From NCBI RefSeq assembly GCF_058153355.1, contig NZ_CM177019.1: a DNA stretch of 64,000 nucleotides, one strand, 5' to 3'. The notes below the pieces were generated by a model. That model was given only the letters and a program-made list of their open reading frames with translations. It did not search any database and was not told the DNA's origin. Made by a program: the position numbers and the translations under genes. Position 1 is the first letter of the stretch; each line of letters starts with the position of its first letter. Of this stretch, positions 8,371 through 28,546 are shown piece by piece.

Positions 8371-9192
8371 TCAGTATTGAGTTTCATTTGTGATCTCTAC
8401 ATTCACTCCTGATGGCTTCTCGCTAAATAAATATCTCATACTCTCATTCTCCATAATCACGGATATATTTAACCCTCCATGAATCCATTGATATGTAATA
8501 TTTTTATCATCAATCTTATAACTAAAATTCCCAATTGGTAACTTTTCCTTCAGATAATTATTCTCCTCATAACTAAGTGCTAGTAATTTATCATAGGCAC
8601 CTTTTAAATCAAAACCCTCAAAATAGCAATGTTCTTTTGATGAACCATCAAATTCTTTTCTGGGATTAGCATCATGACACCAAGTCGACCATTTTTCTTT
8701 TTTTTCCTCAGAAGTATGTTTTTTTTCATTGAAAAACAGCACATAATATTTCTCTGGGATTATTATCTGATCATTAATTTTTAAGATATCTCTATATGGC
8801 CCAGGACATTTATGAACAGAATCCATAATGGATATTTCTTCAGGAAAAAGTTTGCCTTCATGTTTAAATAATTTCCTGTACATACCAACTGTTGTTTGTG
8901 ATAAGTAATATGACAAGGGCTTTTTTTTAACTTCAACATAGTCAGTCGAGCATACGAGACTATTTTCCAATGAATAATCATTTATCGTTAGCTTTCGCCC
9001 ATCCATATTTATCACTACCTTACTGTATGTTTCATCAAGGGCACTTATTATAAGCGAATCATGTTTACCAAAAACATCGATATCTGAAACATTATGATAA
9101 ATCCATACGGTATTTTTAGTATTATCATTAGAATATGCGATACCATGAATAAAAAAAATCATTAGAAAGCCCATAAAAAATTTACCGCGCAT
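8371..9192 (-). CDS. Secreted (signal-peptide) protein of unknown function; candidate immunity protein for the upstream effector
   Basis: 273-aa ORF, N-terminal hydrophobic signal peptide (MRGKFFMGFLMIFFIHGIAYS), very AT-rich and K/N/E-rich; AAGGA ribosome-binding site; starts 19 bp after the effector stop. Confidence 0.6.
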   Translation of the reverse strand: MRGKFFMGFLMIFFIHGIAYSNDNTKNTVWIYHNVSDIDVFGKHDSLIISALDETYSKVVINMDGRKLTINDYSLENSLVCSTDYVEVKKKPLSYYLSQTTVGMYRKLFKHEGKLFPEEISIMDSVHKCPGPYRDILKINDQIIIPEKYYVLFFNEKKHTSEEKKEKWSTWCHDANPRKEFDGSSKEHCYFEGFDLKGAYDKLLALSYEENNYLKEKLPIGNFSYKIDDKNITYQWIHGGLNISVIMENESMRYLFSEKPSGVNVEITNETQY

Positions 9193-9211
9193 ACAAATTC
9201 CTTAATGTAAA

Positions 9212-11977
9212 TCAATGTGATGAATCATAAACATTATTCAAAAATAGATTTTGTTCTTTTCGGCGTCGTATAACAAGGCCAGCAACTCCGCCATTTGTAA
9301 TATCAAGAAATTCATTGGAGGCACCTATATAATCCTTTTGATTAAGTTTAGAATTCAAATTCGGTGCCTTACTCATGCTCCCCATATTAAACAATAAACT
9401 TATTAACGCATCAAATTCGTACTGATATAAATCCACACTCACTGTTCTTTTAAGCTCACTAACAAAACCAGATAAACGCTCTTCAAATAACTCATCAGCT
9501 TTAGCAATTGTTATTCCATGCTGAAATTCTTCTGGTAAAACTATATCATTGCAACGTTGTGTAGCAATTAAATGTCCATAACCTATAGTACAGTAACCTT
9601 CTGAATCATTATATGCTGTTAGTTGTAAATATTCCCATTCTTTTATAAAACCCTTACCTTTATTTGATACATTCAAATCTGCAATGGCGATCCTTTCAGC
9701 AGTTTGTTCTTCGTTAAAACTATTGATGTACCCCTCCATCAATATATCAATTGGATCATGTAAATCATCCCGTCTATAAAATGGAGGTATTTGTGTATTA
9801 TTCGGCGGAGGCGCTCCATTGTTTCCTGGATAGTATTCAAAATGCAACATATAAACCACTTCTTCCCCAGGGATTATAACTGGAGGCCTCCCTGTATCAG
9901 GTTTAATCATCAACCCTGTTTTGGCAATTATTGCCCCTTGCATAATATGATCATTAATCTTTACTAAAATACTTGATGGATCAACTTCACCATACCGCAC
10001 ATAGAAATGCCGACCATCTCTAGTCGAGTGCTCAATCGTAACTTGCCAAGTACCGTAATAGTATCGAGAAATAGCTCTTACTATTCCGTTGCAAACCGAA
10101 ACAATATCAGACTTCGGTTCCGTATATAGATCACGCGCTCCATGTTTTCTATTACCATTATTACGATTTCGTCCAAATATAGCTTGAGAGGCATTTCGAT
10201 CTGTCAAGGCAGCAGCCCAAAAATAATTTTTCCACTTTCCATTTTTGTCATTATTAGGTTTTACTTTTAAAGGAAAAATAATTTGATTTGATTTTTTCTG
10301 AGATAATGAATCTAAAAACACAACCGGATGAAAATGCCACACAGCATCATCACTATTAAACGGAGATACCCCGCTCATCCACTCCAGATCCAGCTGCCAC
10401 TTCTCACAGTATGCCACTTCCTCTGTATCCAGATCTTTATAAAATCCTTCCCACCGCCCTGTCGAGCGCCCTCCGTACCATTCGCTGTGGTGTTTAACTA
10501 TCAGATGATTCACCACATTTCTCACCAGTGGTTCACGCACGATCAGCGCCTGTCTGATCTCTTCCTCCGTCACTTTTCCATCACCGTCCTGATCCATACC
10601 CGCCATCAGCTCACGATAAAAGGGCGGTACCTGCTCATACAGCCACTCATCTCCCTGTTCTGCGGCACGGCTTATTGAGTCAAACGCTTCCGGCACCCAT
10701 CCTTCGTACGGGCTGTACGTCATGTCACCGCTGCTGTTCTCCTCCAGCGGTTGAAAACCCAGCTTCAGTAAATCATACTGTCCGGCCTCTTCAACATCCT
10801 TTTGTGGCAGCCAGCCGGTTCCGGTGATATTAAACCACCACTGCTGCGATTCATCCGTGACTGGTGTCGTGGCTTCCCGCGGAAGAACGCGCTGAGCACC
10901 CAGCGTGGCTGCGGTTGCGGTAAATACCTCCTGTCCCGGAACGGCCTGCCGGGTGTATAAAATTATCCCTTTTGGTGCCAGAACAGTCCGTTTTTCTCCC
11001 TTAACGCCTGCCGGGTTGGATAAGAACTTTGGCATATTCGGGTCTGTACTCAGAACCTCCAGATGGACGAACCACTCGCGCTCAATCTCACCGCTTCCCT
11101 CGCCAGGATAATCCTCGCATCCCATAAATCCGACCGGTGTTCCGGCACTGACTTTCCACTCTTCCGTTTCGTCGACCGTCTGTACCGAGTCAAAAATGCC
11201 TTTTGCCTTCGCCTTCTGCATCCACTCAGGCATCAGCATCTGTATTTCGCCATCTGACTCCATCAGATCCGGATCCAGGGTCACCCAGTACTGCTCATTC
11301 CCCGGTTTATTGCCTTCCAGCAGGCGAACCAGTCCGAATGTCGTCAGGACCGGCTGGCCGTTATTGGTCACGTAAAAACGTCCGGTCCGGGATGACACAA
11401 ACCGATCTCCCGCATTAAGTGTCCTGTTTCCGCTGATTTTCGGGGGTATCCAGTACGTGGCATGATCTCCGCTTTCCTGCCCCTCGGGAAGGCCGTTCTT
11501 TCCCGGGATGTATCGGTGCAGCAATATGCCACCATGCCCGGTTTTAACTTTATAGCAGGGGGAGCCGGGATAATCGTTCACCGGGGCCAGATGCATATAG
11601 AGACAGTAAAATTCCAGCCAGCTTTCTTTTTTTTGCGGGTCTGGCTGGCACTGCGATTTCACCAGAACAAATGTGCTGCTGTAACGGAGTTGCTGCCCTT
11701 TGTAGGGGCCTTTCAGGTAATCATTATTTATCCGGTACGCCGCAATGGTGCCATCGGCCATAAACTGAAGAGGAACCGGTTCTCCGGTAGCGGCGGTATC
11801 CGGTTTCAGGGCTGATAACGGATTAGACACGTCACTGATATGTATCCCGCCGTGCCACAGCCCGTTTCCACCCAGCAGCCAGGTTCCGTGCGCTTCTTTG
11901 TCAATAAGCCGCATTATCTCATCCAGTGAGCGAAACTCTTTGCCTTCTTTATCCCTGATGGGATGGCTGATTTTCAT
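9212..11977 (-). CDS. Candidate T6SS cargo effector: multidomain peptidoglycan hydrolase (M23/LytM-like domain plus C-terminal T4-lysozyme-like GH24 domain), with an EF-hand-like loop
   Basis: 921-aa ORF starting 9 bp after the vgrG stop with an AAGGA ribosome-binding site; C-terminus carries the phage-lysozyme signature EWEYLQLTAYNDSEGYCTIGYGHL; middle region has KHGARD (HxxxD) ... YMLHFEY (M23-like); DQDGDGKVTEEE calcium-binding-type loop. Confidence 0.7.
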   Translation of the reverse strand: MKISHPIRDKEGKEFRSLDEIMRLIDKEAHGTWLLGGNGLWHGGIHISDVSNPLSALKPDTAATGEPVPLQFMADGTIAAYRINNDYLKGPYKGQQLRYSSTFVLVKSQCQPDPQKKESWLEFYCLYMHLAPVNDYPGSPCYKVKTGHGGILLHRYIPGKNGLPEGQESGDHATYWIPPKISGNRTLNAGDRFVSSRTGRFYVTNNGQPVLTTFGLVRLLEGNKPGNEQYWVTLDPDLMESDGEIQMLMPEWMQKAKAKGIFDSVQTVDETEEWKVSAGTPVGFMGCEDYPGEGSGEIEREWFVHLEVLSTDPNMPKFLSNPAGVKGEKRTVLAPKGIILYTRQAVPGQEVFTATAATLGAQRVLPREATTPVTDESQQWWFNITGTGWLPQKDVEEAGQYDLLKLGFQPLEENSSGDMTYSPYEGWVPEAFDSISRAAEQGDEWLYEQVPPFYRELMAGMDQDGDGKVTEEEIRQALIVREPLVRNVVNHLIVKHHSEWYGGRSTGRWEGFYKDLDTEEVAYCEKWQLDLEWMSGVSPFNSDDAVWHFHPVVFLDSLSQKKSNQIIFPLKVKPNNDKNGKWKNYFWAAALTDRNASQAIFGRNRNNGNRKHGARDLYTEPKSDIVSVCNGIVRAISRYYYGTWQVTIEHSTRDGRHFYVRYGEVDPSSILVKINDHIMQGAIIAKTGLMIKPDTGRPPVIIPGEEVVYMLHFEYYPGNNGAPPPNNTQIPPFYRRDDLHDPIDILMEGYINSFNEEQTAERIAIADLNVSNKGKGFIKEWEYLQLTAYNDSEGYCTIGYGHLIATQRCNDIVLPEEFQHGITIAKADELFEERLSGFVSELKRTVSVDLYQYEFDALISLLFNMGSMSKAPNLNSKLNQKDYIGASNEFLDITNGGVAGLVIRRRKEQNLFLNNVYDSSH

Positions 11978-11986
11978 GTTCAGTCC

Positions 11987-14186
11987 TTATCGTGAGAATC
12001 TTCCCGGCCGTTGTGGCGGTACCTTATCCTGCTGGGGAGGATCAAAGGCTTCCTGTACACTTTTCCGTGGTGGCTCCGCCCCTTCAGTTCCAGGTCCGCC
12101 ATTGTCATAATCTGCCAGCGCTTTCAAAACCGCCGGTCGTAGCGTCGGCACCGGCGTTCCCGGACTACCGCCGCTATTGAGATTGATTTTCGGCCCGACG
12201 ATGTCCACGCCCCCTGAATGGATGACCACAAACGAACCACCCACCTTTAGGGTGATTTTACCGCCACTCTCCAGTACGATTTCATTCCGGACCTTCATTC
12301 CCAGCGCACCGGTAATCTTCCTCGCCAGGTCGCCCTTCACCTCCAGACTGTGCTTTCCCTCCACCAGGCTGATATGGTTCCCCGTCGTCTTATGCTCCTG
12401 CTTCCCTTCCACCGTCACTTTACGGTCGTTTCTGACATACAGGCCGTCATCGTGACTCACGCTCACCGTCCGGTCATTCGTCACCTTCAGCGTCTGGTCA
12501 TTACGTACCGTTATGCGCCGGTCGTTCGCCACCGTGATACTCTGGTCGTGACCCCCTTCTTTTCTGGTGCCGACCTCAACCGTCTGCCCCTTCACCACCC
12601 TTATCTTCTGGTCGTTACCGATGGTCTCCGTATGGTCATGCTTCACGTCCGTCGTCCGGTCGTTAAGCACCTCCGTGTCCATGTTCTTCTGCGCGTGGAT
12701 ATACACCTGCTCACTGTCCGTCGCATCCTCGAAACGCAGTTCATTAAAGCCGCTTCCTTTATAGGTCTTCGAGCGGATGGTCATCTGCGTCCGCGTGCCC
12801 GGTAAATCCCCCGGTGAACGGTTATCTTCATGGTAGGTCCGCCCCGTCACAATGGGCTGGTCCGGGTCGCCGTTCAGAAAGTCCACTATCACTTCCTGAC
12901 CCACACGCGGTATCGCCAGATTGCCGAACCCCGGTCCCGCCCATGCCTGCGACACCCGTATCCAGCACGAACTCTCCTCCGTCATCCCGTGATAACGGTC
13001 CCAGTGAAACTTCACCCGTACCCGGCCATGCTCGTCGCAGAATATCTCCTCACCCTTCGGCCCGGTCACGATGGCACTCTGCGGGCCGTCCACCTTCGGC
13101 TTCGGCAGCGGCGCGTGACGCCACGTCCTGTCTGCCGGTATCACCTCAAACTGATTGCTCAGTGTCGTCCCTTCACCGTGACTCCCGTGCAGCGCCTGCG
13201 GCTGTTCTCCCCGCAGTGTGCTTCCCACAACCTGCCATTCCCGGTTCAGCGTCTCTGAGGGATGGCCCGTCAGCCGGAACCGCGTTCCCGGCCACAGCCG
13301 CGCCGTGTTACACACCCCGCTCGCCGTCTCCGCCCCGTTCCGCCACCCTTCCGTCTGGTAACGCGCAAAATCCTGGCCATGCTGCTCATCCTTGAAACGC
13401 CCCGGATAATCAAATATCTCGTACTGCGTTCCCTGCCCGTTCAGGCTCTCCCCGTCATGGCTGTAGTACCCCGGCCACCCCGGCGTTTTGAACGTATAAT
13501 CCTGCGTCTCCACCGACGCCACGCTTATCTGCGCACGGTAACGAAACTCACTGATGTACTCCGTCGTTCCCCCGGTCGTGGTATTCGGGTTAAACGCCAG
13601 CGCCCCCATTCCCGTCAGCCCCGCCACGTCATCACACACCGCCAGCTTCTGCTCCGGCCCTTCCTGACCGCAGCGCTCATAAAAGAAGATACCTTCCTCC
13701 GCCCACAGCCGGGTCAGGAATGCCAGGTCGCTCTCCCCGTACTGCACGCAGAACTCCCGCGCCGGGTGCGCCTCATAGAACAGCGGCATCCACGCCGTCA
13801 CCCCGTTCTCTCTCAGAAGCTGTGCTGATATCGTCTGAATGTCCTGCTGCTGGAAGATACGGAAGTTCTGCCGTAACCCTGCCCGCCACAGCGGCGGGCT
13901 GATGCTCAGGGAATAACGCATCTGCCAGTCGTTGTTCTCACCGAGCTGCACCTCCGTCACGATACCGCTGACGTAACGCTGCGGGATATCACCCTGCCAG
14001 ACCGTCAGCACCGCGCTCTTCTCCAGAAAATCCTCCGCCATCAGGTCGGACAGCCCGCTGGCGATATCCACATCCAGGATGAACGACGTGCAGTGGTGCT
14101 GGTACAGACGGAAGCTCACCACCGCCGTCGCCATCTCCACGATACCGTCCACCGACAGCGTGAAACGTAATCCTTCTGAGGACATA
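11987..14186 (-). CDS. vgrG: Type VI secretion spike protein VgrG (gp27/gp5-like)
   Basis: About 733 aa from MSSEGLRFTL; characteristic VgrG N-terminus, gp5-like beta-helix repeats (VTVxNDRxxTV...) and Pro-rich C-terminal tail; the maximal ORF extends 11 codons further upstream. Confidence 0.85.
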
Positions 14187-14360
14187 TAAACCCCATAGCT
14201 ACCGCACTCATGGTGCAAACCATACGGGCTTATAAGAAAGGCTTAAGTGAGATATCTGCCAGATAGCAACTATTAGGAAAATATTTATATATATTTCATG
14301 AATATATATTTCGGTTGGTATAACGGTGTCTAAATATTCCTCTGAACATCTTCCTGATAC

Positions 14361-19349: not shown

Positions 19350-22026
19350 CGAACCCTTACGTCCCGACCCCGATCGTCTGCTGGAACAAACTGCCGCGCC
19401 GCACCGGGGGAAGCTGAAAGTTTTTTTCGGTGCCTGTGCAGGCGTCGGGAAGACCTGGGCGATGCTGGCAGAAGCCCAACGACTGCGGGCGCAAGGGCTG
19501 GATATTGTGGTTGGCGTGGTTGAAACTCACGGACGGAAAGATACCGCCGCAATGCTGGAAGGGCTGGCTGTTCTGCCGCTAAAACGCCAGGCGTACCGTG
19601 GGCGGCATATCAGCGAGTTTGATCTCGATGCCGCCCTCGCCCGCCGTCCGGCGCTGATCTTAATGGACGAACTGGCGCACAGTAATGCGCCAGGTTCTCG
19701 TCATCCTAAACGCTGGCAGGACATTGAAGAGCTGCTGGAAGCAGGCATTGATGTTTTCACTACCGTCAACGTTCAGCATCTGGAAAGTCTGAATGATGTG
19801 GTCAGTGGCGTCACCGGAATTCAGGTACGGGAAACCGTGCCCGATCCTTTTTTTGATGCTGCCGACGACGTGGTGCTGGTGGACTTGCCCCCGGACGATC
19901 TGCGCCAGCGGCTGAAAGAAGGCAAAGTCTATATTGCCGGGCAGGCGGAGCGCGCCATTGAACACTTTTTCCGCAAAGGCAATCTGATCGCCCTGCGCGA
20001 ACTGGCACTGCGCCGTACTGCCGATCGCGTAGATGAGCAAATGCGCGCCTGGCGGGGGCATCCTGGCAAAGAGAAAGTCTGGCACACGCGCGACGCGATC
20101 CTTTTATGTATTGGGCATAACACCGGCAGCGAAAAACTGGTCCGCGCGGCGGCGCGGTTGGCGTCACGGCTGGGGAGCATCTGGCACGCGGTGTATGTTG
20201 AAACCCCTGCCCTGCACCGCTTACCGGAGAAAAAACGTCGGGCAATTCTCAGCGCCTTACGTCTGGCGCAGGAGCTGGGCGCGGAGACGGCAACACTTTC
20301 TGATCCAGCGGAAGAGAAAGCGGTAGTGCGTTATGCCCGTGAACATAATCTCGGCAAGATTATTCTCGGTCGCCCGGCCTCGCGCCGCTGGTGGCGTCGG
20401 GAAACGTTTGCTGACCGACTGGCGCGAATCGCCCCCGATCTCGATCAGGTGCTGGTCGCGCTTGATGAACCACCCGCCCGCACGATTAACAACGCGCCGG
20501 ATAGCCGCTCTTTTAAAGACAAGTGGCGGGTACAGATTCAGGGATGCGTGGTTGCCGCCGCGTTATGCGCCGTTATCACCTTAATTGCCATGCAGTGGCT
20601 GATGGCGTTTGATGCCGCCAACCTAGTGATGCTGTATCTGCTTGGCGTGGTGGTGGTGGCGCTATTTTATGGACGCTGGCCTTCGGTGCTTGCTACCGTC
20701 ATTAATGTGGTGAGTTTCGATCTCTTTTTTATCGCCCCACGCGGCACGCTCGCCGTCTCTGATGTGCAGTATCTGCTGACTTTCGCGGTGATGTTAACCG
20801 TCGGGCTGGTGATCGGGAATCTTACTGCTGGCGTACGTTATCAGGCGCGGGTAGCCCGTTACCGCGAGCAACGCACACGACACTTATATGAAATGTCGAA
20901 AGCTCTGGCTGTGGGACGCAGTCCGCAGGACATCGCCGCCACCAGCGAACAATTTATTGCTTCCACGTTTCATGCCCGCAGTCAGGTGTTGTTGCCCGAT
21001 GACAACGGCAAATTGCAGCCGTTGACACATCCGCAAGGAATGACGCCGTGGGACGATGCCATCGCGCAATGGAGTTTTGATAAAGGCCTGCCTGCGGGCG
21101 CGGGCACCGACACGTTACCCGGTGTGCCATACCAGATTTTGCCGTTAAAAAGCGGCGAGAAAACCTACGGACTGGTGGTGGTGGAACCGGGGAATCTGCG
21201 CCAGTTGATGATCCCGGAACAGCAACGCCTGCTGGAGACGTTCACGCTGTTAGTTGCCAATGCCCTGGAACGCCTGGCACTGACCGCCAGCGAAGAACAG
21301 GCGCGGATGGCAAGCGAACGAGAACAGATCCGCAACGCCCTGCTGGCGGCGCTTTCGCATGATTTACGCACGCCGCTTACGGTGCTGTTCGGTCAGGCAG
21401 AAATCTTAACGCTCGATCTGGCAAGCGAAGGATCGCCTCACGCCCGCCAGGCCAGCGAGATTCGTCAGCATGTGCTGAACACGACCCGACTGGTGAATAA
21501 TCTACTGGATATGGCGCGAATTCAGTCCGGCGGCTTTAATTTGAAGAAAGAGTGGTTAACGCTGGAAGAAGTGGTCGGCAGCGCGCTGCAAATGCTGGAA
21601 CCGGGTTTATCCTCGCCCATCAACCTTTCTCTGCCAGAACCGCTGACCTTAATCCACGTTGACGGGCCACTCTTTGAACGGGTGCTGATTAATCTGCTGG
21701 AGAACGCGGTGAAATACGCGGGTGCGCAGGCCGAAATTGGTATCGATGCCCACGTTGAGGGCGAAAATCTACAACTGGATGTCTGGGATAACGGCCCCGG
21801 TCTTCCACAAGGCCTGGAGCAGGCGATATTCGATAAGTTTGCTCGTGGAAATAAAGAGTCGGCGGTGCCGGGCGTTGGGCTTGGGCTGGCAATTTGTCGG
21901 GCGATTGTGGATGTACACGACGGCACCATTACCGCGTTCAACCGACCGCAAGGTGGTGCCTGTTTTCGTGTTACACTTCCCCAGCAAACTGCCCCTGAAC
22001 TTGAAGAATTTCATGAGGATATGTGA
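19342..22026 (+). CDS. kdpD: Sensor histidine kinase KdpD
   Basis: 894 aa from [14 protein letters not shown]; histidine-kinase H-box (LSHDLRTPL) and ATPase motifs; start overlaps kdpC stop. Confidence 0.9.
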
Positions 22027-22700
22027 CAAACGTTCTGATTGTTGAAGATGAACAGGCTATTCGTCGCTTTCTGCGCACAGCGCTGGAGGGCGATGGGATG
22101 CGCGTCTTTGAGGCCGAAACGCTGCAACGCGGCTTGCTGGAAGCGGCAACCCGTAAGCCAGATTTGATTATTCTCGATCTCGGCCTGCCAGACGGTGATG
22201 GGATTGAGTTTATCCGCGACCTGCGCCAGTGGAGCGCGGTGCCAGTAATTGTGCTTTCCGCCCGCAGCGAAGAGAGCGACAAAATCGCCGCGCTGGATGC
22301 CGGAGCGGATGATTACCTGAGTAAGCCATTTGGTATTGGCGAATTACAGGCCCGTCTGCGCGTTGCTTTACGCCGCCACTCTGCTACCACCGCGCCCGAT
22401 CCGCTGGTGAAATTTTCTGATGTTACCGTCGATTTAGCCGCCCGCGTAATCCACCGCGGCGAGGAAGAGGTGCACCTCACACCGCTTGAGTTCCGCCTGC
22501 TGGCGGTGCTGCTCAACAACGCCGGAAAAGTGCTCACCCAGCGCCAGCTCCTCAACCAGGTGTGGGGGCCAAATGCGGTCGAACACAGCCACTATTTGCG
22601 TATATATATGGGGCATCTGCGACAAAAACTGGAGCAAGATCCCGCCCGCCCTCGCCATTTTATTACTGAAACCGGTATTGGGTATCGGTTTATGCTTTGA
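22023..22700 (+). CDS. kdpE: Response regulator KdpE (OmpR family)
   Basis: 225 aa; receiver domain plus winged-helix; overlaps kdpD stop by 4 bp. Confidence 0.9.
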   Translation: MTNVLIVEDEQAIRRFLRTALEGDGMRVFEAETLQRGLLEAATRKPDLIILDLGLPDGDGIEFIRDLRQWSAVPVIVLSARSEESDKIAALDAGADDYLSKPFGIGELQARLRVALRRHSATTAPDPLVKFSDVTVDLAARVIHRGEEEVHLTPLEFRLLAVLLNNAGKVLTQRQLLNQVWGPNAVEHSHYLRIYMGHLRQKLEQDPARPRHFITETGIGYRFML

Positions 22701-23295: not shown

Positions 23296-25494
23296 ATGTC
23301 AAAATTAAAAATTGCGGTTAGTGATTCTTGCCCGGACTGTTTTACCACGCAGCGAGAATGTATCTATATTAATGAAAACAGTAATATCGATGTGGCGGCA
23401 ATAGTTTTATCGATCAACGATGTTGCACGAGGAAAACTCGATGAAATCGATGCCACGGGTTATGGCATCCCGGTATTTATTGCTACTGAAGATAAAGAAC
23501 GTGTACCCGCAGAGTATTTGCCCCGTATTTCGGGTGTATTTGAGAATTGCGAATCACGACGAGAATTTTATGGTCGTCAGTTAGAAACCGCAGCCAGCCA
23601 TTATGAAACTCAACTGCGCCCGCCCTTCTTCCGCGCACTGGTCGATTATGTCAATCAGGGCAATAGCGCTTTTGACTGCCCGGGTCATCAGGGGGGTGAG
23701 TTTTTCCGTCGCCATCCGGCAGGCAATCAGTTCGTGGAATATTTTGGCGAAATGCTCTTCCGCTCCGACTTGTGTAATGCCGACGTAGCAATGGGCGATC
23801 TACTGATTCATGAAGGTGCGCCATGCATTGCACAGCAACATGCGGCTAAAGTGTTTAATGCCGATAAAACGTACTTTGTTTTAAACGGCACCTCCTCTTC
23901 CAACAAAGTGGTTTTAAACGCCCTGCTAACACCGGGTGATCTGGTGCTGTTTGACCGCAATAACCATAAGTCTAACCACCACGGGGCCTTGCTACAGGCT
24001 GGTGCAACACCGGTTTATCTGGAAACAGCACGTAACCCGTATGGTTTTATCGGTGGTATTGATGCGCACTGCTTCGAAGAAAGTTATCTGCGTGAACTGA
24101 TTAGAGAAGTTGCACCGCAACGGGCAAAAGAGGCGCGTCCGTTCCGCCTCGCTGTGATTCAGTTAGGCACCTACGACGGTACTATTTATAACGCCCGCCA
24201 GGTGGTGGATAAAATCGGTCATCTGTGTGACTACATCCTGTTTGACTCAGCATGGGTCGGCTATGAACAGTTTATTCCGATGATGGCGGACTGTTCGCCG
24301 CTGCTACTGGAGCTTAATGAGAACGATCCGGGTATTCTGGTTACGCAATCTGTACATAAGCAGCAGGCTGGTTTTTCTCAGACTTCACAAATTCATAAAA
24401 AAGACAGCCATATCAAAGGGCAACAGCGTTATGTACCGCACAAACGCATGAACAACGCCTTTATGATGCACGCCTCCACCAGCCCGTTCTATCCGCTGTT
24501 TGCCGCACTGGATATTAACGCCAAAATGCATGAAGGTGTCAGCGGTCGTAATATGTGGATGGATTGTGTGGTTAACGGTATTAATGCCCGCAAATTGATC
24601 CTCGATAACTGCCAGCACATTCGTCCGTTCGTTCCTGAACTGGTGGATGGTAAACCCTGGCAATCGTATGAAACAGCGCAAATTGCGGTTGATCTGCGCT
24701 TCTTTAAATTTGTACCCGGTGAGCACTGGCATTCTTTTGAAGGTTACGCAGAGAATCAATACTTTGTCGATCCGTGCAAACTGTTGCTGACAACCCCAGG
24801 TATTGATGCACGTAACGGCGAATACGAAGCGTTCGGTGTACCCGCGACGATTCTTGCTAACTTCCTGCGCGAAAATGGCGTAGTGCCGGAAAAATGCGAT
24901 CTTAACTCCATCCTCTTCCTGCTGACTCCGGCAGAAGATATGGCCAAACTGCAGCAACTTGTTGCCCTGCTGGTACGCTTCGAAAAACTACTGGAAGCTG
25001 ATGCGCCTCTGGCGGAAGTATTGCCTTCCATCTACAAACAGCATGAAGAGCGCTACGCCGGTTATACCCTGCGTCAGTTGTGCCAGGAAATGCATGATTT
25101 GTATGCCCGTCACAACGTGAAACAACTGCAAAAAGAGATGTTCCGTAAGGAACACTTCCCACGCGTCAGCATGAATCCACAGGAAGCCAACTATGCCTAC
25201 TTACGCGGTGAAGTGGAATTGGTTCGTCTGCCGGATGCAGAAGGCCGTATCGCAGCCGAAGGTGCGCTTCCTTATCCTCCGGGTGTGCTGTGTGTTGTTC
25301 CGGGTGAAATCTGGGGTGGTGCTGTTCTGCGTTACTTCAGCGCTCTGGAAGAAGGGATCAATCTGCTGCCAGGTTTTGCACCGGAGCTGCAGGGTGTCTA
25401 TATCGAAGAACATGATGGTCGTAAGCAAGTTTGGTGCTATGTCATCAAGCCTCGTGATGCGCAAAGCACCCTGTTGAAAGGGGAAAAATTATGA
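23296..25494 (+). CDS. speF: Inducible ornithine decarboxylase
   Basis: 732-aa ORF followed by overlapping potE. Confidence 0.9.
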   Translation: MSKLKIAVSDSCPDCFTTQRECIYINENSNIDVAAIVLSINDVARGKLDEIDATGYGIPVFIATEDKERVPAEYLPRISGVFENCESRREFYGRQLETAASHYETQLRPPFFRALVDYVNQGNSAFDCPGHQGGEFFRRHPAGNQFVEYFGEMLFRSDLCNADVAMGDLLIHEGAPCIAQQHAAKVFNADKTYFVLNGTSSSNKVVLNALLTPGDLVLFDRNNHKSNHHGALLQAGATPVYLETARNPYGFIGGIDAHCFEESYLRELIREVAPQRAKEARPFRLAVIQLGTYDGTIYNARQVVDKIGHLCDYILFDSAWVGYEQFIPMMADCSPLLLELNENDPGILVTQSVHKQQAGFSQTSQIHKKDSHIKGQQRYVPHKRMNNAFMMHASTSPFYPLFAALDINAKMHEGVSGRNMWMDCVVNGINARKLILDNCQHIRPFVPELVDGKPWQSYETAQIAVDLRFFKFVPGEHWHSFEGYAENQYFVDPCKLLLTTPGIDARNGEYEAFGVPATILANFLRENGVVPEKCDLNSILFLLTPAEDMAKLQQLVALLVRFEKLLEADAPLAEVLPSIYKQHEERYAGYTLRQLCQEMHDLYARHNVKQLQKEMFRKEHFPRVSMNPQEANYAYLRGEVELVRLPDAEGRIAAEGALPYPPGVLCVVPGEIWGGAVLRYFSALEEGINLLPGFAPELQGVYIEEHDGRKQVWCYVIKPRDAQSTLLKGEKL

Positions 25495-26810: not shown

Positions 26811-26825
26811 TAAAGCGAAATAAAA

Positions 26826-26856
26826 AAGGGCGATTGAATGATCGCCCTTTCTGTTT
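26826..26856 (+). terminator. Rho-independent terminator after potE
   Basis: gggcgat...atcgccc hairpin followed by T-rich tract. Confidence 0.6.
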
Positions 26857-26894
26857 GTTGACAAAGAGTTCGTTATTTATGCCGCATCCGGCAG

Positions 26895-27034
26895 GTGTAG
26901 GGTCCAAACGCGGTCGAACACAGCAACTATTTGCGTAATTATATGAGGCATTTGCGACAAAAACTGGAACAGGATCTCGTCCGCCCCGCCATTTCATTAC
27001 TGAAACCGGTATTGGGTATCGGTTTATGCTTTGA
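26895..27034 (+). repeat. Diverged duplicate of the kdpE 3' end (last ~140 bp including stop)
   Basis: Aligns to 22561-22700 at roughly 85-90% identity, ending in the identical aaaccggtattgggtatcggtttatgctttga. Confidence 0.85.
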
Positions 27035-27157
27035 AAAAAGTGGCAATGTATGGATAAAGTCATTTTTTATTCAAATATAAGGAACTTAATATTTAAAAAA
27101 TGTCCCATACAATGCCTCATCATAAATGACACCGTAGCACACAAGGAGCAAGTAGCG

Positions 27158-27808
27158 ATGCGTGAAGTGAGTCAGTTAGTAAATACTGAAGATTCAGCCT
27201 GGCCAATAATCCAGAATTGGTTAAAAGAAGCCACAAACCATGCCGAACTCTTACCGGTTAATAAAGATTTAGCCGAAACCGCGCTTTATCAATTACAGGT
27301 TACAACAAAATCACCGATGGGTGCGCTTGTCTATGGCTCCGGAGGTCTGCTGATTGATAACGGTTGGTTACGCATAGCAGGCTCTGGTCACCCCCGGTTA
27401 CCACGAGATCCAGCAAGTTGGACACAACGCCCTGAATTCGCAAGCGTGCGGGCTTTACCCATCGCCGATGATGTCGCAGGGGGAATTTTTGCTCTTAATG
27501 GTGGCGATCTTGGGGAAGATACTGGCTGCGTTTATTATTTTGCGCCAGATACGCTGAATTGGGAAAGTCTGGAGGTTGGATATTCTGAGTTTCTTCAGTG
27601 GGCATTATCCGGTGATTTAGATACCTTCTATGAAAATGTACGCTGGCCGCAATGGCAAGAAGACGTAATAAAATTATCGGCAACGGAAGCCTTCACTTTC
27701 TACCCTTTCTTATGGGTACAAAGTGAAGAAGCAAGAACAAGAAAAGTTATTTCGCTTACTGAACTCTGGGAAATGCAGTATCAAATGAAAGAAACAATCA
27801 CGCAATAA
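27158..27808 (+). CDS. DUF2625-family protein (YbfG-like), apparently intact
   Basis: 216-aa ORF from MREVSQLVNTEDS preceded by AAGGAG; maximal ORF starts at 27050. Confidence 0.6.
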   Translation: MREVSQLVNTEDSAWPIIQNWLKEATNHAELLPVNKDLAETALYQLQVTTKSPMGALVYGSGGLLIDNGWLRIAGSGHPRLPRDPASWTQRPEFASVRALPIADDVAGGIFALNGGDLGEDTGCVYYFAPDTLNWESLEVGYSEFLQWALSGDLDTFYENVRWPQWQEDVIKLSATEAFTFYPFLWVQSEEARTRKVISLTELWEMQYQMKETITQ

Positions 27809-27848
27809 GACATGTTCAGGTCCGGGTTTCATTCCCGGACTCGCTATT

Positions 27849-28343
27849 TTAATGTGTGTTTATCGCTTTCAATTCTTGCTGGCAATTTTCTGACTGACAG
27901 CGTCGCAACTCAATAATCCCGACATGCATCATCGAGCCAAAAAATCCGCTTTCGCTGACATAATCCTCATTAACTATCGGTCGAGTGCCGGGCTTACCCT
28001 GGCAAATCCCCATAAAAAATGAGGTGTAGCATTGCCATTCAGGATTTAAACCGGTCTTTTCTTGTGCTGACATATCATGAAGATAAGTAAGTTCTTTTTC
28101 GTTCCCGCCTGACAACTGCCAGCGGCGGGTATTATCAGGTAAGTTATCGCCACGGCAATTTGTCTTACACCGGGAAGGCGCAATATTTACCGCAATGCTA
28201 CCCGTTAATCCTCTGGTTTTATCTTTAGGGGTCAGTAACCAGTCACCAGCTAATGATGATTGTTCAGGTTGGGCGCATGCTGTCAGCAGTAGTGTGGCGG
28301 TAATTAATGCCACTCTGACGACCAGACTCCTTTTGGTCTTCAT
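27849..28343 (-). CDS. ybfP: Lipoprotein YbfP
   Basis: 164 aa from MKTKRSLVVRVALITATLLLTAC (lipobox). Confidence 0.75.
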   Translation of the reverse strand: MKTKRSLVVRVALITATLLLTACAQPEQSSLAGDWLLTPKDKTRGLTGSIAVNIAPSRCKTNCRGDNLPDNTRRWQLSGGNEKELTYLHDMSAQEKTGLNPEWQCYTSFFMGICQGKPGTRPIVNEDYVSESGFFGSMMHVGIIELRRCQSENCQQELKAINTH

Positions 28344-28394
28344 TTTGAATTCCCTTGAGCTATTCAGTTTGTTGGCAAAGTACTCGTTGTTCAT

Positions 28395-28493
28395 GCCGGA
28401 TGCGGCGTGAACGCCTTATCCGTCCTACAAAATAGTGCAAATTCAATATATTGCACCATCCTCGTAGGCCTGATGAACGTAGCGTATCAGGCT
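28395..28493. repeat. REP/BIME cluster (two inverted REP units)
   Basis: gccggatgcggcgtgaacgccttatccg..cctac and gtaggcctgatgaacgtagcgtatcaggc. Confidence 0.8.
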
Positions 28494-28546
28494 ATCATAA
28501 GTAAAAAGGGCGATCTTCCGACCGCCCTTTTTCTTATTTAATGTGT

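Follow-up and report, generated by a model that had tools for sequence, protein, structure and literature searches.

Organization of the ybfG locus

The 64,000-nucleotide stretch of DNA analysed here (the window) carries ybfG in the gene order kdpD-kdpE, speF, potE, ybfI, ybfG, followed on the opposite strand by ybfP, pgm and seqA. The features at and around ybfG are as follows.

26823..26855: potE-side terminator hairpin, left-hand member of the direct repeat flanking the module
26886..27035, plus strand: ybfI, a frameshifted copy of the kdpE end, about 90% identical to the last ~150 nt of kdpE
27081..27107, plus strand: sigma-E-type promoter-like motif GGAACTT-15 nt-TCCCA, an inferred promoter 51 nt upstream of the ATG
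27143..27148, plus strand: Shine-Dalgarno sequence AAGGAG, 9 nt 5′ of the ybfG ATG
27158..27808, plus strand: ybfG coding sequence, intact DUF2625 protein, ATG to TAA, 216 codons
27365..27367, plus strand: codon 70 of ybfG, TGG (Trp), aligned with TAG (amber) in K-12 MG1655
27819..27841: G+C-rich terminator-like hairpin between the convergent ybfG and ybfP
27849..28343, minus strand: ybfP, running towards ybfG and encoding a 164-aa lipoprotein (lipobox LLTAC)
28503..28535: pgm-side terminator hairpin, right-hand member of the same direct repeat

A previous reading of the letters alone (the sequence-only reading) had described a single uninterrupted 216-aa DUF2625 open reading frame with an AAGGAG ribosome-binding site, and our analysis bears this out: the frame runs from 27158 to 27808 without interruption, the AAGGAG lies where listed above, and comparison with Pfam gives a full-length match to DUF2625 (PF10946; E 3.1e-87; 291.4 bits, cut-off 27; positions 2-206 of the 207 in the profile). 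The product also matches the NCBIfam equivalog PRK11408.1-1 (NF008494) at 509 bits (cut-off 278), a model whose product name is only ‘hypothetical protein’. The coding sequence is identical to the copy in E. coli 2020CK-00188, which is annotated as intact (WP_001209504.1), and the frame is a real conserved gene rather than a chance ORF. An in-frame ATG at 27050, which would give a 252-aa product, is not the true start because 53 homologues and the RefSeq copy of the identical gene begin at the MRE... methionine.

In an alignment of 54 family sequences, all 25 invariant columns are present in the window protein, and the invariant DUF2625 residues include GG62-63, D67, R72, SG76-77, R83, DD104-105, GG108-109, NGG114-116, P130 and YPFLW182-186. 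In nucleotides the window gene and the common allele are 97% identical (dS 0.081, dN 0.018, dN/dS 0.22). Set against the BL21 and K-12 alleles, the window gene has a dN/dS of 0.22-0.25; the value for the neighbouring potE is 0.014. YbfG has a size of ~25 kDa, and reading of its sequence (MREVSQLVNTEDSAWP...) reveals no visible N-terminal hydrophobic segment or lipobox. From the sequence and a globular structural model the protein is predicted to be cytoplasmic, the compartment of a DNase's target.

The ybfI scar carries one 1-nt deletion relative to the window's own kdpE (22023-22700) and includes the kdpE stop codon; it is probably the trace of an older rearrangement that put speF-potE between kdpE and ybfG. 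On the far side of ybfG, ybfP belongs to the same presence/absence module, and our search for a family match for it returned none. The module spans 1.68 kb between two similar hairpins in direct orientation. One genome examined that is devoid of the module has just one hairpin in the interval from the potE stop codon to that of pgm (L003, 5640-5690), and this is the pgm-side copy, which suggests module gain or loss by recombination between the hairpins. Genomes without ybfG make up two thirds of complete E. coli genomes; in one of these, FDAARGOS_448, 56 nt separate the potE stop codon from the pgm stop codon. REP-like GCCGGATGCGGC sequences lie near both ends of the module (26876-26893 and 28394-28411). 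We also observed that speF (23296..25494) is an intact 732-aa ORF in the window; in 2020CK-00188, the strain that carries the identical ybfG, speF contains an internal stop and is a pseudogene in RefSeq.

Upstream of ybfG, the sigma-E-like motif is the one match to GGAACTT-N15-17-TCNNA in the 64-kb window, where chance would give 0.26. K-12 has the same −35 element, whereas its −10 element differs by one base. K-12 ybfH-ybfG have been reported as induced by sigma-E, 3.9-fold and 25.2-fold (PMC2731931).

Elsewhere in the window, between phr and the kdp operon, the minus strand carries an orphan T6SS trio resembling a vgrG-effector-immunity islet (8371-14218), composed of the following genes.

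11987..14218, minus strand: VgrG (TIGR03361, E 5e-176)
9212..11977, minus strand: 921-aa protein with a C-terminal endolysin-like domain (BgtA-like, E 2e-18)
8371..9192, minus strand: 273-aa protein with no family match

In K-12 the position of this islet is taken by the rhsC element.

The K-12 amber allele and the carriage of ybfG in E. coli

The sequence-only reading stated, at low confidence, that the K-12 counterpart is annotated as split or as a pseudogene. MG1655 ybfG (b0691, 715947-716597) is 651 nt long, as in the window, and is annotated as a pseudogene; its translation has a single in-frame stop, at codon 70, where alignment with the window gives TGG→TAG, and an older annotation split the gene as ybfH/ybfG, b0691-b0690 (PMC2731931). 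The pseudogene annotation, the stop at codon 70 and the earlier split show this statement to be right, and the K-12 gene is not equally intact. The two genes share their length and their flanks (potE, ybfI, ybfP and pgm) and are 97.0% identical in nucleotides; they differ in that the K-12 copy carries the W70 amber and a second change, G109V, and the window allele has neither. The G109V substitution (L001, 3159-3809) falls on the invariant Gly of the ADDxxGG motif, which BL21 keeps, and fits drift after inactivation.

We counted ybfG carriage in 5,426 complete E. coli genomes with a 51-nt probe that has the K-12 amber codon at its centre. The gene is present in 1,779 of the 5,426. The amber version gave an exact match in 364 of the 1,779 carriers, and each sampled row was a K-12 laboratory derivative (the sampled strains include MG1655, DH1, HB101, CJ236 and EPI300); this allele appears confined to the K-12 laboratory lineage. 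The TGG version of the same probe matched exactly in 1,280 genomes, and about 131 more carry the window-type allele, which is also TGG. BL21 ybfG is annotated as intact. Disruptions of other kinds occur sporadically: IS1 has inserted into the gene in RM14721, and some copies are partial.

Trp70 is at least 90% conserved among 54 family members from Enterobacterales, Burkholderia and Bacteroidota. This conservation, together with TGG in ~1,410 of the 1,779 carriers, indicates that the intact state is ancestral, and we hold with high confidence that the window carries the intact ancestral allele and K-12 a derived pseudogene. The earlier suggestion that this strain may retain the functional ancestral form thus stands as far as ancestral intactness is concerned; that the form is functional is our reading of its conservation and purifying selection. 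Intactness does not set the strain apart, since the intact allele is common and the amber allele is the oddity. An intact ybfG is ordinary: the annotations of well over a thousand complete E. coli genomes already list one, and the K-12 lesion was known before.

In an unrelated observation, a 1.9-kb contig of a Collinsella sp. metagenome-assembled genome (L014) encodes a YbfG that shares 96% identity with that of E. coli; the contig is almost certainly an E. coli contaminant of the Collinsella bin.

Predicted fold and genomic context of DUF2625 proteins

An AlphaFold2 model of YbfG built from 54 homologues (pLDDT 90.4, pTM 0.89) is globular throughout. The top Foldseek matches of the model are Tdi2 (8fzz_B) and Tdi1 (8g0k_B), with TM 0.53-0.59. 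Structural comparison with the model scored Bacteroides Tdi1 (8g0k_D) at 10.6, Agrobacterium Tdi1, Atu4351 (6itw), at 9.9, Lin2918 at 8.3, YobK at 7.4, a Smi1/Knr4 family protein at 6.4, FBXO3 at 6.2, Syd at 4.2 and RhsPI at 3.7. These matches all belong to the SUKH superfamily, and most of them are nuclease-toxin immunity proteins (PMC3113570, PMC10470768), and the YbfG model has the alpha+beta fold that the superfamily shares with Smi1/Knr4, YobK and Syd. On the basis of this predicted structure we file YbfG as a putative SUKH-fold protein. Sequence comparison places it at a distance: the match to Pfam SMI1_KNR4 is weak (E 0.018, 16.1 bits, below the cut-off of 25.4), four of 54 DUF2625 family sequences match SMI1_KNR4 and one matches SUKH_6 (E 0.074), and a sequence search of all PDB chains with YbfG returned nothing significant (best E 1.2). 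Membership of the Tdi1/DUF1851 family was considered and rejected, there being no DUF1851 match at E <= 10 and 10-14% identity; the likeness is one of fold only. The PADLOC defence models gave no match to YbfG or YbfP.

Of the structural relatives, Tdi1/Tdi2 of Bacteroidales and Atu4351/Tdi1 of Agrobacterium are DUF1851-type T6SS immunity proteins against Ntox15 DNases (8g0k, 8fzz, 6itw). Like YbfG they are about 195-220 aa long, and they neutralise a DNase toxin, the type of toxin to which DUF2625 is linked by gene order. They are also, like DUF2625 proteins, mostly orphans and far more numerous than their toxin, and Tdi orphans still protect. They differ from YbfG in sequence (only 10-14% identity, YbfG being without a Pfam DUF1851 match) and in toxin partner, which is Ntox15 for Tdi and PF14040 (NucA/NucB type) for DUF2625 relatives. 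With the SUKH-1 proteins (SMI1/KNR4, PF09346; B. subtilis YobK, RhsPI; PMC3113570) the YbfG model shares the superfamily fold and YbfG a common core motif around (I/F)A(D/E)D..GG.F ... VYYF.P(D/E)T, and both families are linked by gene order to nuclease toxins in Rhs, CDI and PT-HINT loci. DUF2625 also occurs fused with SMI1_KNR4 domains. YbfG is longer, however, at ~216 aa against ~130-150 aa, with extra N- and C-terminal elements; DUF2625 sequences are far more conserved than typical SUKH-1 sequences, and YbfG falls under the SMI1_KNR4 cut-off.

At 50% identity the DUF2625 family falls into about 1,480 clusters. Most are from Bacteroidota and Proteobacteria, with Firmicutes, Actinobacteria and other groups also represented. 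The family's fusions (DUF2625 with SMI1_KNR4, and tandem DUF2625) are of a kind typical of poly-immunity proteins. In the literature searched, the term ‘DUF2625’ does not occur, and mentions of ‘ybfG’ are confined to its use as a pseudogene control and to expression tables.

Most relatives of YbfG are solitary. Among 78 genome loci with YbfG-like genes, 77 have no toxin within 8 kb, and their neighbours are heterogeneous. Clustering of the neighbours at positions −3 to +3 by BLAST in 76 of the 78 loci (the target ORF was unrecovered in the other two) gave no conserved operon partner, the biggest neighbour cluster being six loci that reflect lineage synteny. When the ±2 neighbours of DUF2625 genes were scanned against Pfam, no toxin family was enriched near YbfG relatives; the matches were a scatter of DinB_2, GNAT, glyoxalase and DUF1801 with a few SMI1_KNR4/DUF4265. 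In nine other loci, close-spaced upstream genes were rejected as toxin partners, being unrelated enzymes or regulators.

A Clostridium homopropionicum locus (L049) is of another kind. It encodes an Rhs protein of 2,437 aa whose C-terminal domain is DNase_NucA_NucB-like, and 21 nt past the Rhs gene lies a DUF2625 gene (E 1e-80), followed by an orphan Rhs C-terminus and a small membrane protein and then by an Imm53 gene. The toxin domain itself scores 22.2 bits in Pfam, slightly under the gathering score of 23.8, and its homologues carry PF14040. Judged from its sequence, the locus looks like a textbook Rhs toxin/immunity array. We found 131 homologues of this toxin domain. PF14040 is present in almost all of them, and some have PT-HINT or bear an RHS or filamentous haemagglutinin label. 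In the three closest on usable contigs (L097, L098 and L099/L101), a PF10946 gene lies 1-19 nt downstream, and two of these loci belong to Rhs orphan-module arrays. L098 pairs a short stand-alone nuclease gene with DUF2625, and no delivery domain is recognisable within 4 kb. On a megaplasmid of C. butyricum, DUF2625 directly follows a toxin remnant inside a GH-E/ankyrin module array. In all, DUF2625 stands directly after an Rhs or orphan NucA/NucB-type toxin C-terminus in five unrelated low-GC loci (L049, L097, L098, L099/L101 and L104). YbfG is 45% identical to the toxin-linked DUF2625 members of L049 and L098.

Each of six more distant toxin homologues is followed by a gene of 171-217 aa from a sister family. 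These toxin loci are as follows.

L094: Enterobacteriaceae CdiA
L095: Salmonella
L096: Acidovorax Rhs
L102: Permianibacter
L103: Leptospira Rhs plasmid
L106: Rahnella VENN-CT

Their scaffolds are CdiA/VENN and Rhs, with one stand-alone gene. The sister family aligns with the DUF2625 profile over the same core motif, at an hhalign probability of 87% (E 3.7e-6, ~84 core columns). It resembles DUF2625 in length and in its position after the same toxin family, and it differs in that its members fall under the PF10946 threshold (E 0.006-0.09) and are toxin-linked in the sampled loci, whereas DUF2625 is mostly orphan. The sister family has no Pfam model at threshold and bears the PGAP label ‘SMI1/KNR4 family protein’; we note it as an immunity-position partner of proteobacterial and Leptospira NucA/NucB-type toxins and a distant DUF2625 relative.

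Thus the toxin is paired with DUF2625 or its sister family in 11 of the 11 toxin loci examined, the toxin domains being 56-79% identical to each other among the loci. The pattern is asymmetric: the toxins are always followed by DUF2625 or the sister family, and DUF2625 mostly occurs without a toxin. The window conforms to the second half of this pattern. No toxin lies directly upstream of its ybfG, where the neighbours are potE and the ybfI scar, and the 64-kb window has no PF14040-like sequence, so YbfG here can be an immunity gene only as an orphan. The Salmonella toxin-plus-immunity DNA had no match, at the DNA level, in complete E. coli genomes.

Proposed role of YbfG

On balance we lean towards YbfG being an orphan immunity protein against NucA/NucB-type DNase toxins. 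The members of the DUF2625 family would be the immunity partners of the PF14040 DNase domains borne C-terminally by Rhs and other polymorphic toxins. A competitor would deliver such a DNase domain into the cytoplasm, where YbfG would bind it 1:1 and block or distort its active site, preventing DNA degradation as Tdi1/Tdi2 do for Ntox15 DNases; expression of ybfG would probably be driven by the sigma-E-type promoter. Intactness, family membership, the K-12 lesion and its spread, the predicted fold and the order of toxin and immunity genes in relatives are shown directly; that YbfG binds and neutralises a toxin, that the E. coli orphan cross-protects and that the ybfG promoter is used are the steps that we infer. 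Orphan Tdi genes are about tenfold commoner than their toxins and yet still protect (PMC10470768), and the asymmetry between toxin-linked and orphan DUF2625 genes appears, by analogy, to follow the same pattern as this experimentally shown orphan immunity.

Several findings count against the immunity reading. Of the 78 loci with YbfG-like genes, 77 are free of a toxin within 8 kb, the window has no PF14040-like sequence, the Salmonella-type module had no DNA-level match in complete E. coli genomes, and the L049 toxin domain stays slightly under its Pfam gathering score, although its homologues carry PF14040. The E. coli, Burkholderia and Bacteroidota members are 45-55% identical, which is unusually high for an immunity family; the 56-79% identity among the toxins may lie behind this conservation. 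The many invariant charged residues of DUF2625 could fit an enzyme or a housekeeping binder equally. The partner of the enterobacterial toxins examined is the sister family rather than DUF2625 proper, and SUKH folds serve in non-immunity roles too (Syd, Smi1/Knr4, FBXO3). The sigma-E induction of K-12 ybfH-ybfG could point to an endogenous envelope-stress role instead.

That role is the core of one rival account, in which YbfG is a housekeeping or accessory adaptor of the sigma-E regulon whose SUKH fold binds an endogenous partner, as Syd binds SecY, and the toxin-linked members were recruited secondarily. Such an adaptor would accommodate the strength of the sigma-E response in K-12 (PMC2731931) and the PhoPQ-dependent expression in Shigella, the solitary state of ~99% of close YbfG homologues in unrelated contexts, the high cross-phylum conservation with its many invariant polar residues, and the presence of Syd, Knr4 and FBXO3 among the fold matches. 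A core envelope-stress role is nevertheless a poor fit, because the absence or disruption of ybfG is repeated across E. coli, the gene being missing from two thirds of genomes and repeatedly lost or disrupted. Nor was a conserved partner gene found near DUF2625 genes, and the pairing of toxin with DUF2625 or its sister family at every one of the 11 toxin loci sits badly with an endogenous partner. We consider this account unlikely. In a second rival account ybfG, though intact, is a functionally irrelevant remnant, drifting as a passenger on an old 1.7-kb islet and by chance not yet hit in this strain. The presence/absence polymorphism (1,779 of 5,426 genomes), the independent disruptions (the K-12 amber, the RM14721 IS1 insertion and the partial copies), the neighbouring ybfI, itself a pseudogene scar, and the service of a K-12 ybfG deletion mutant as a neutral control all agree with drift. 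A passenger would not be expected, however, to show a dN/dS of 0.22-0.25 between alleles with a dS of 0.08, to keep every invariant family residue in the window protein, to have codon 70 intact in ~80% of carriers, or to conserve its Shine-Dalgarno sequence and sigma-E-like motif between the window and K-12 (with one base of the −10 element different), and we regard it as quite improbable.

The pairing of DUF2625 with a nuclease domain would also suit a protein that inhibits or chaperones a nuclease or other enzyme of the same cell, in self-protection or in an antitoxin-like role, and the stand-alone nuclease of L098, with its DUF2625 gene and no delivery domain recognisable within 4 kb, is an arrangement of this kind. 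The window, however, is without a PF14040-like sequence, and most of the paired nucleases are on Rhs, PT-HINT, VENN or filamentous-haemagglutinin scaffolds, that is, they are delivered toxins; a same-cell target is therefore very improbable.

By itself the intact allele matters little, being common and annotated, with a well-known pseudogene in K-12. What is new here is a testable function for a domain of unknown function, drawn from its fold and a repeated gene order, together with the indel structure of the locus. Extending the immunity reading further, we propose tentatively that DUF2625 could be an orphan immunity family of wide distribution and unusual conservation, directed against NucA/NucB-type DNase toxins that arrive on Rhs, CDI and PT-HINT scaffolds, with the E. 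coli gene, present in a third of strains and lost in K-12, as a sigma-E-inducible, pre-emptive shield against interbacterial DNase toxins. If the immunity reading is true, K-12 strains would be natural nulls and convenient hosts for testing such toxins, carriage of ybfG could alter how well E. coli competes with bacteria armed with them, and sigma-E induction would tie envelope stress to immunity against incoming effectors.
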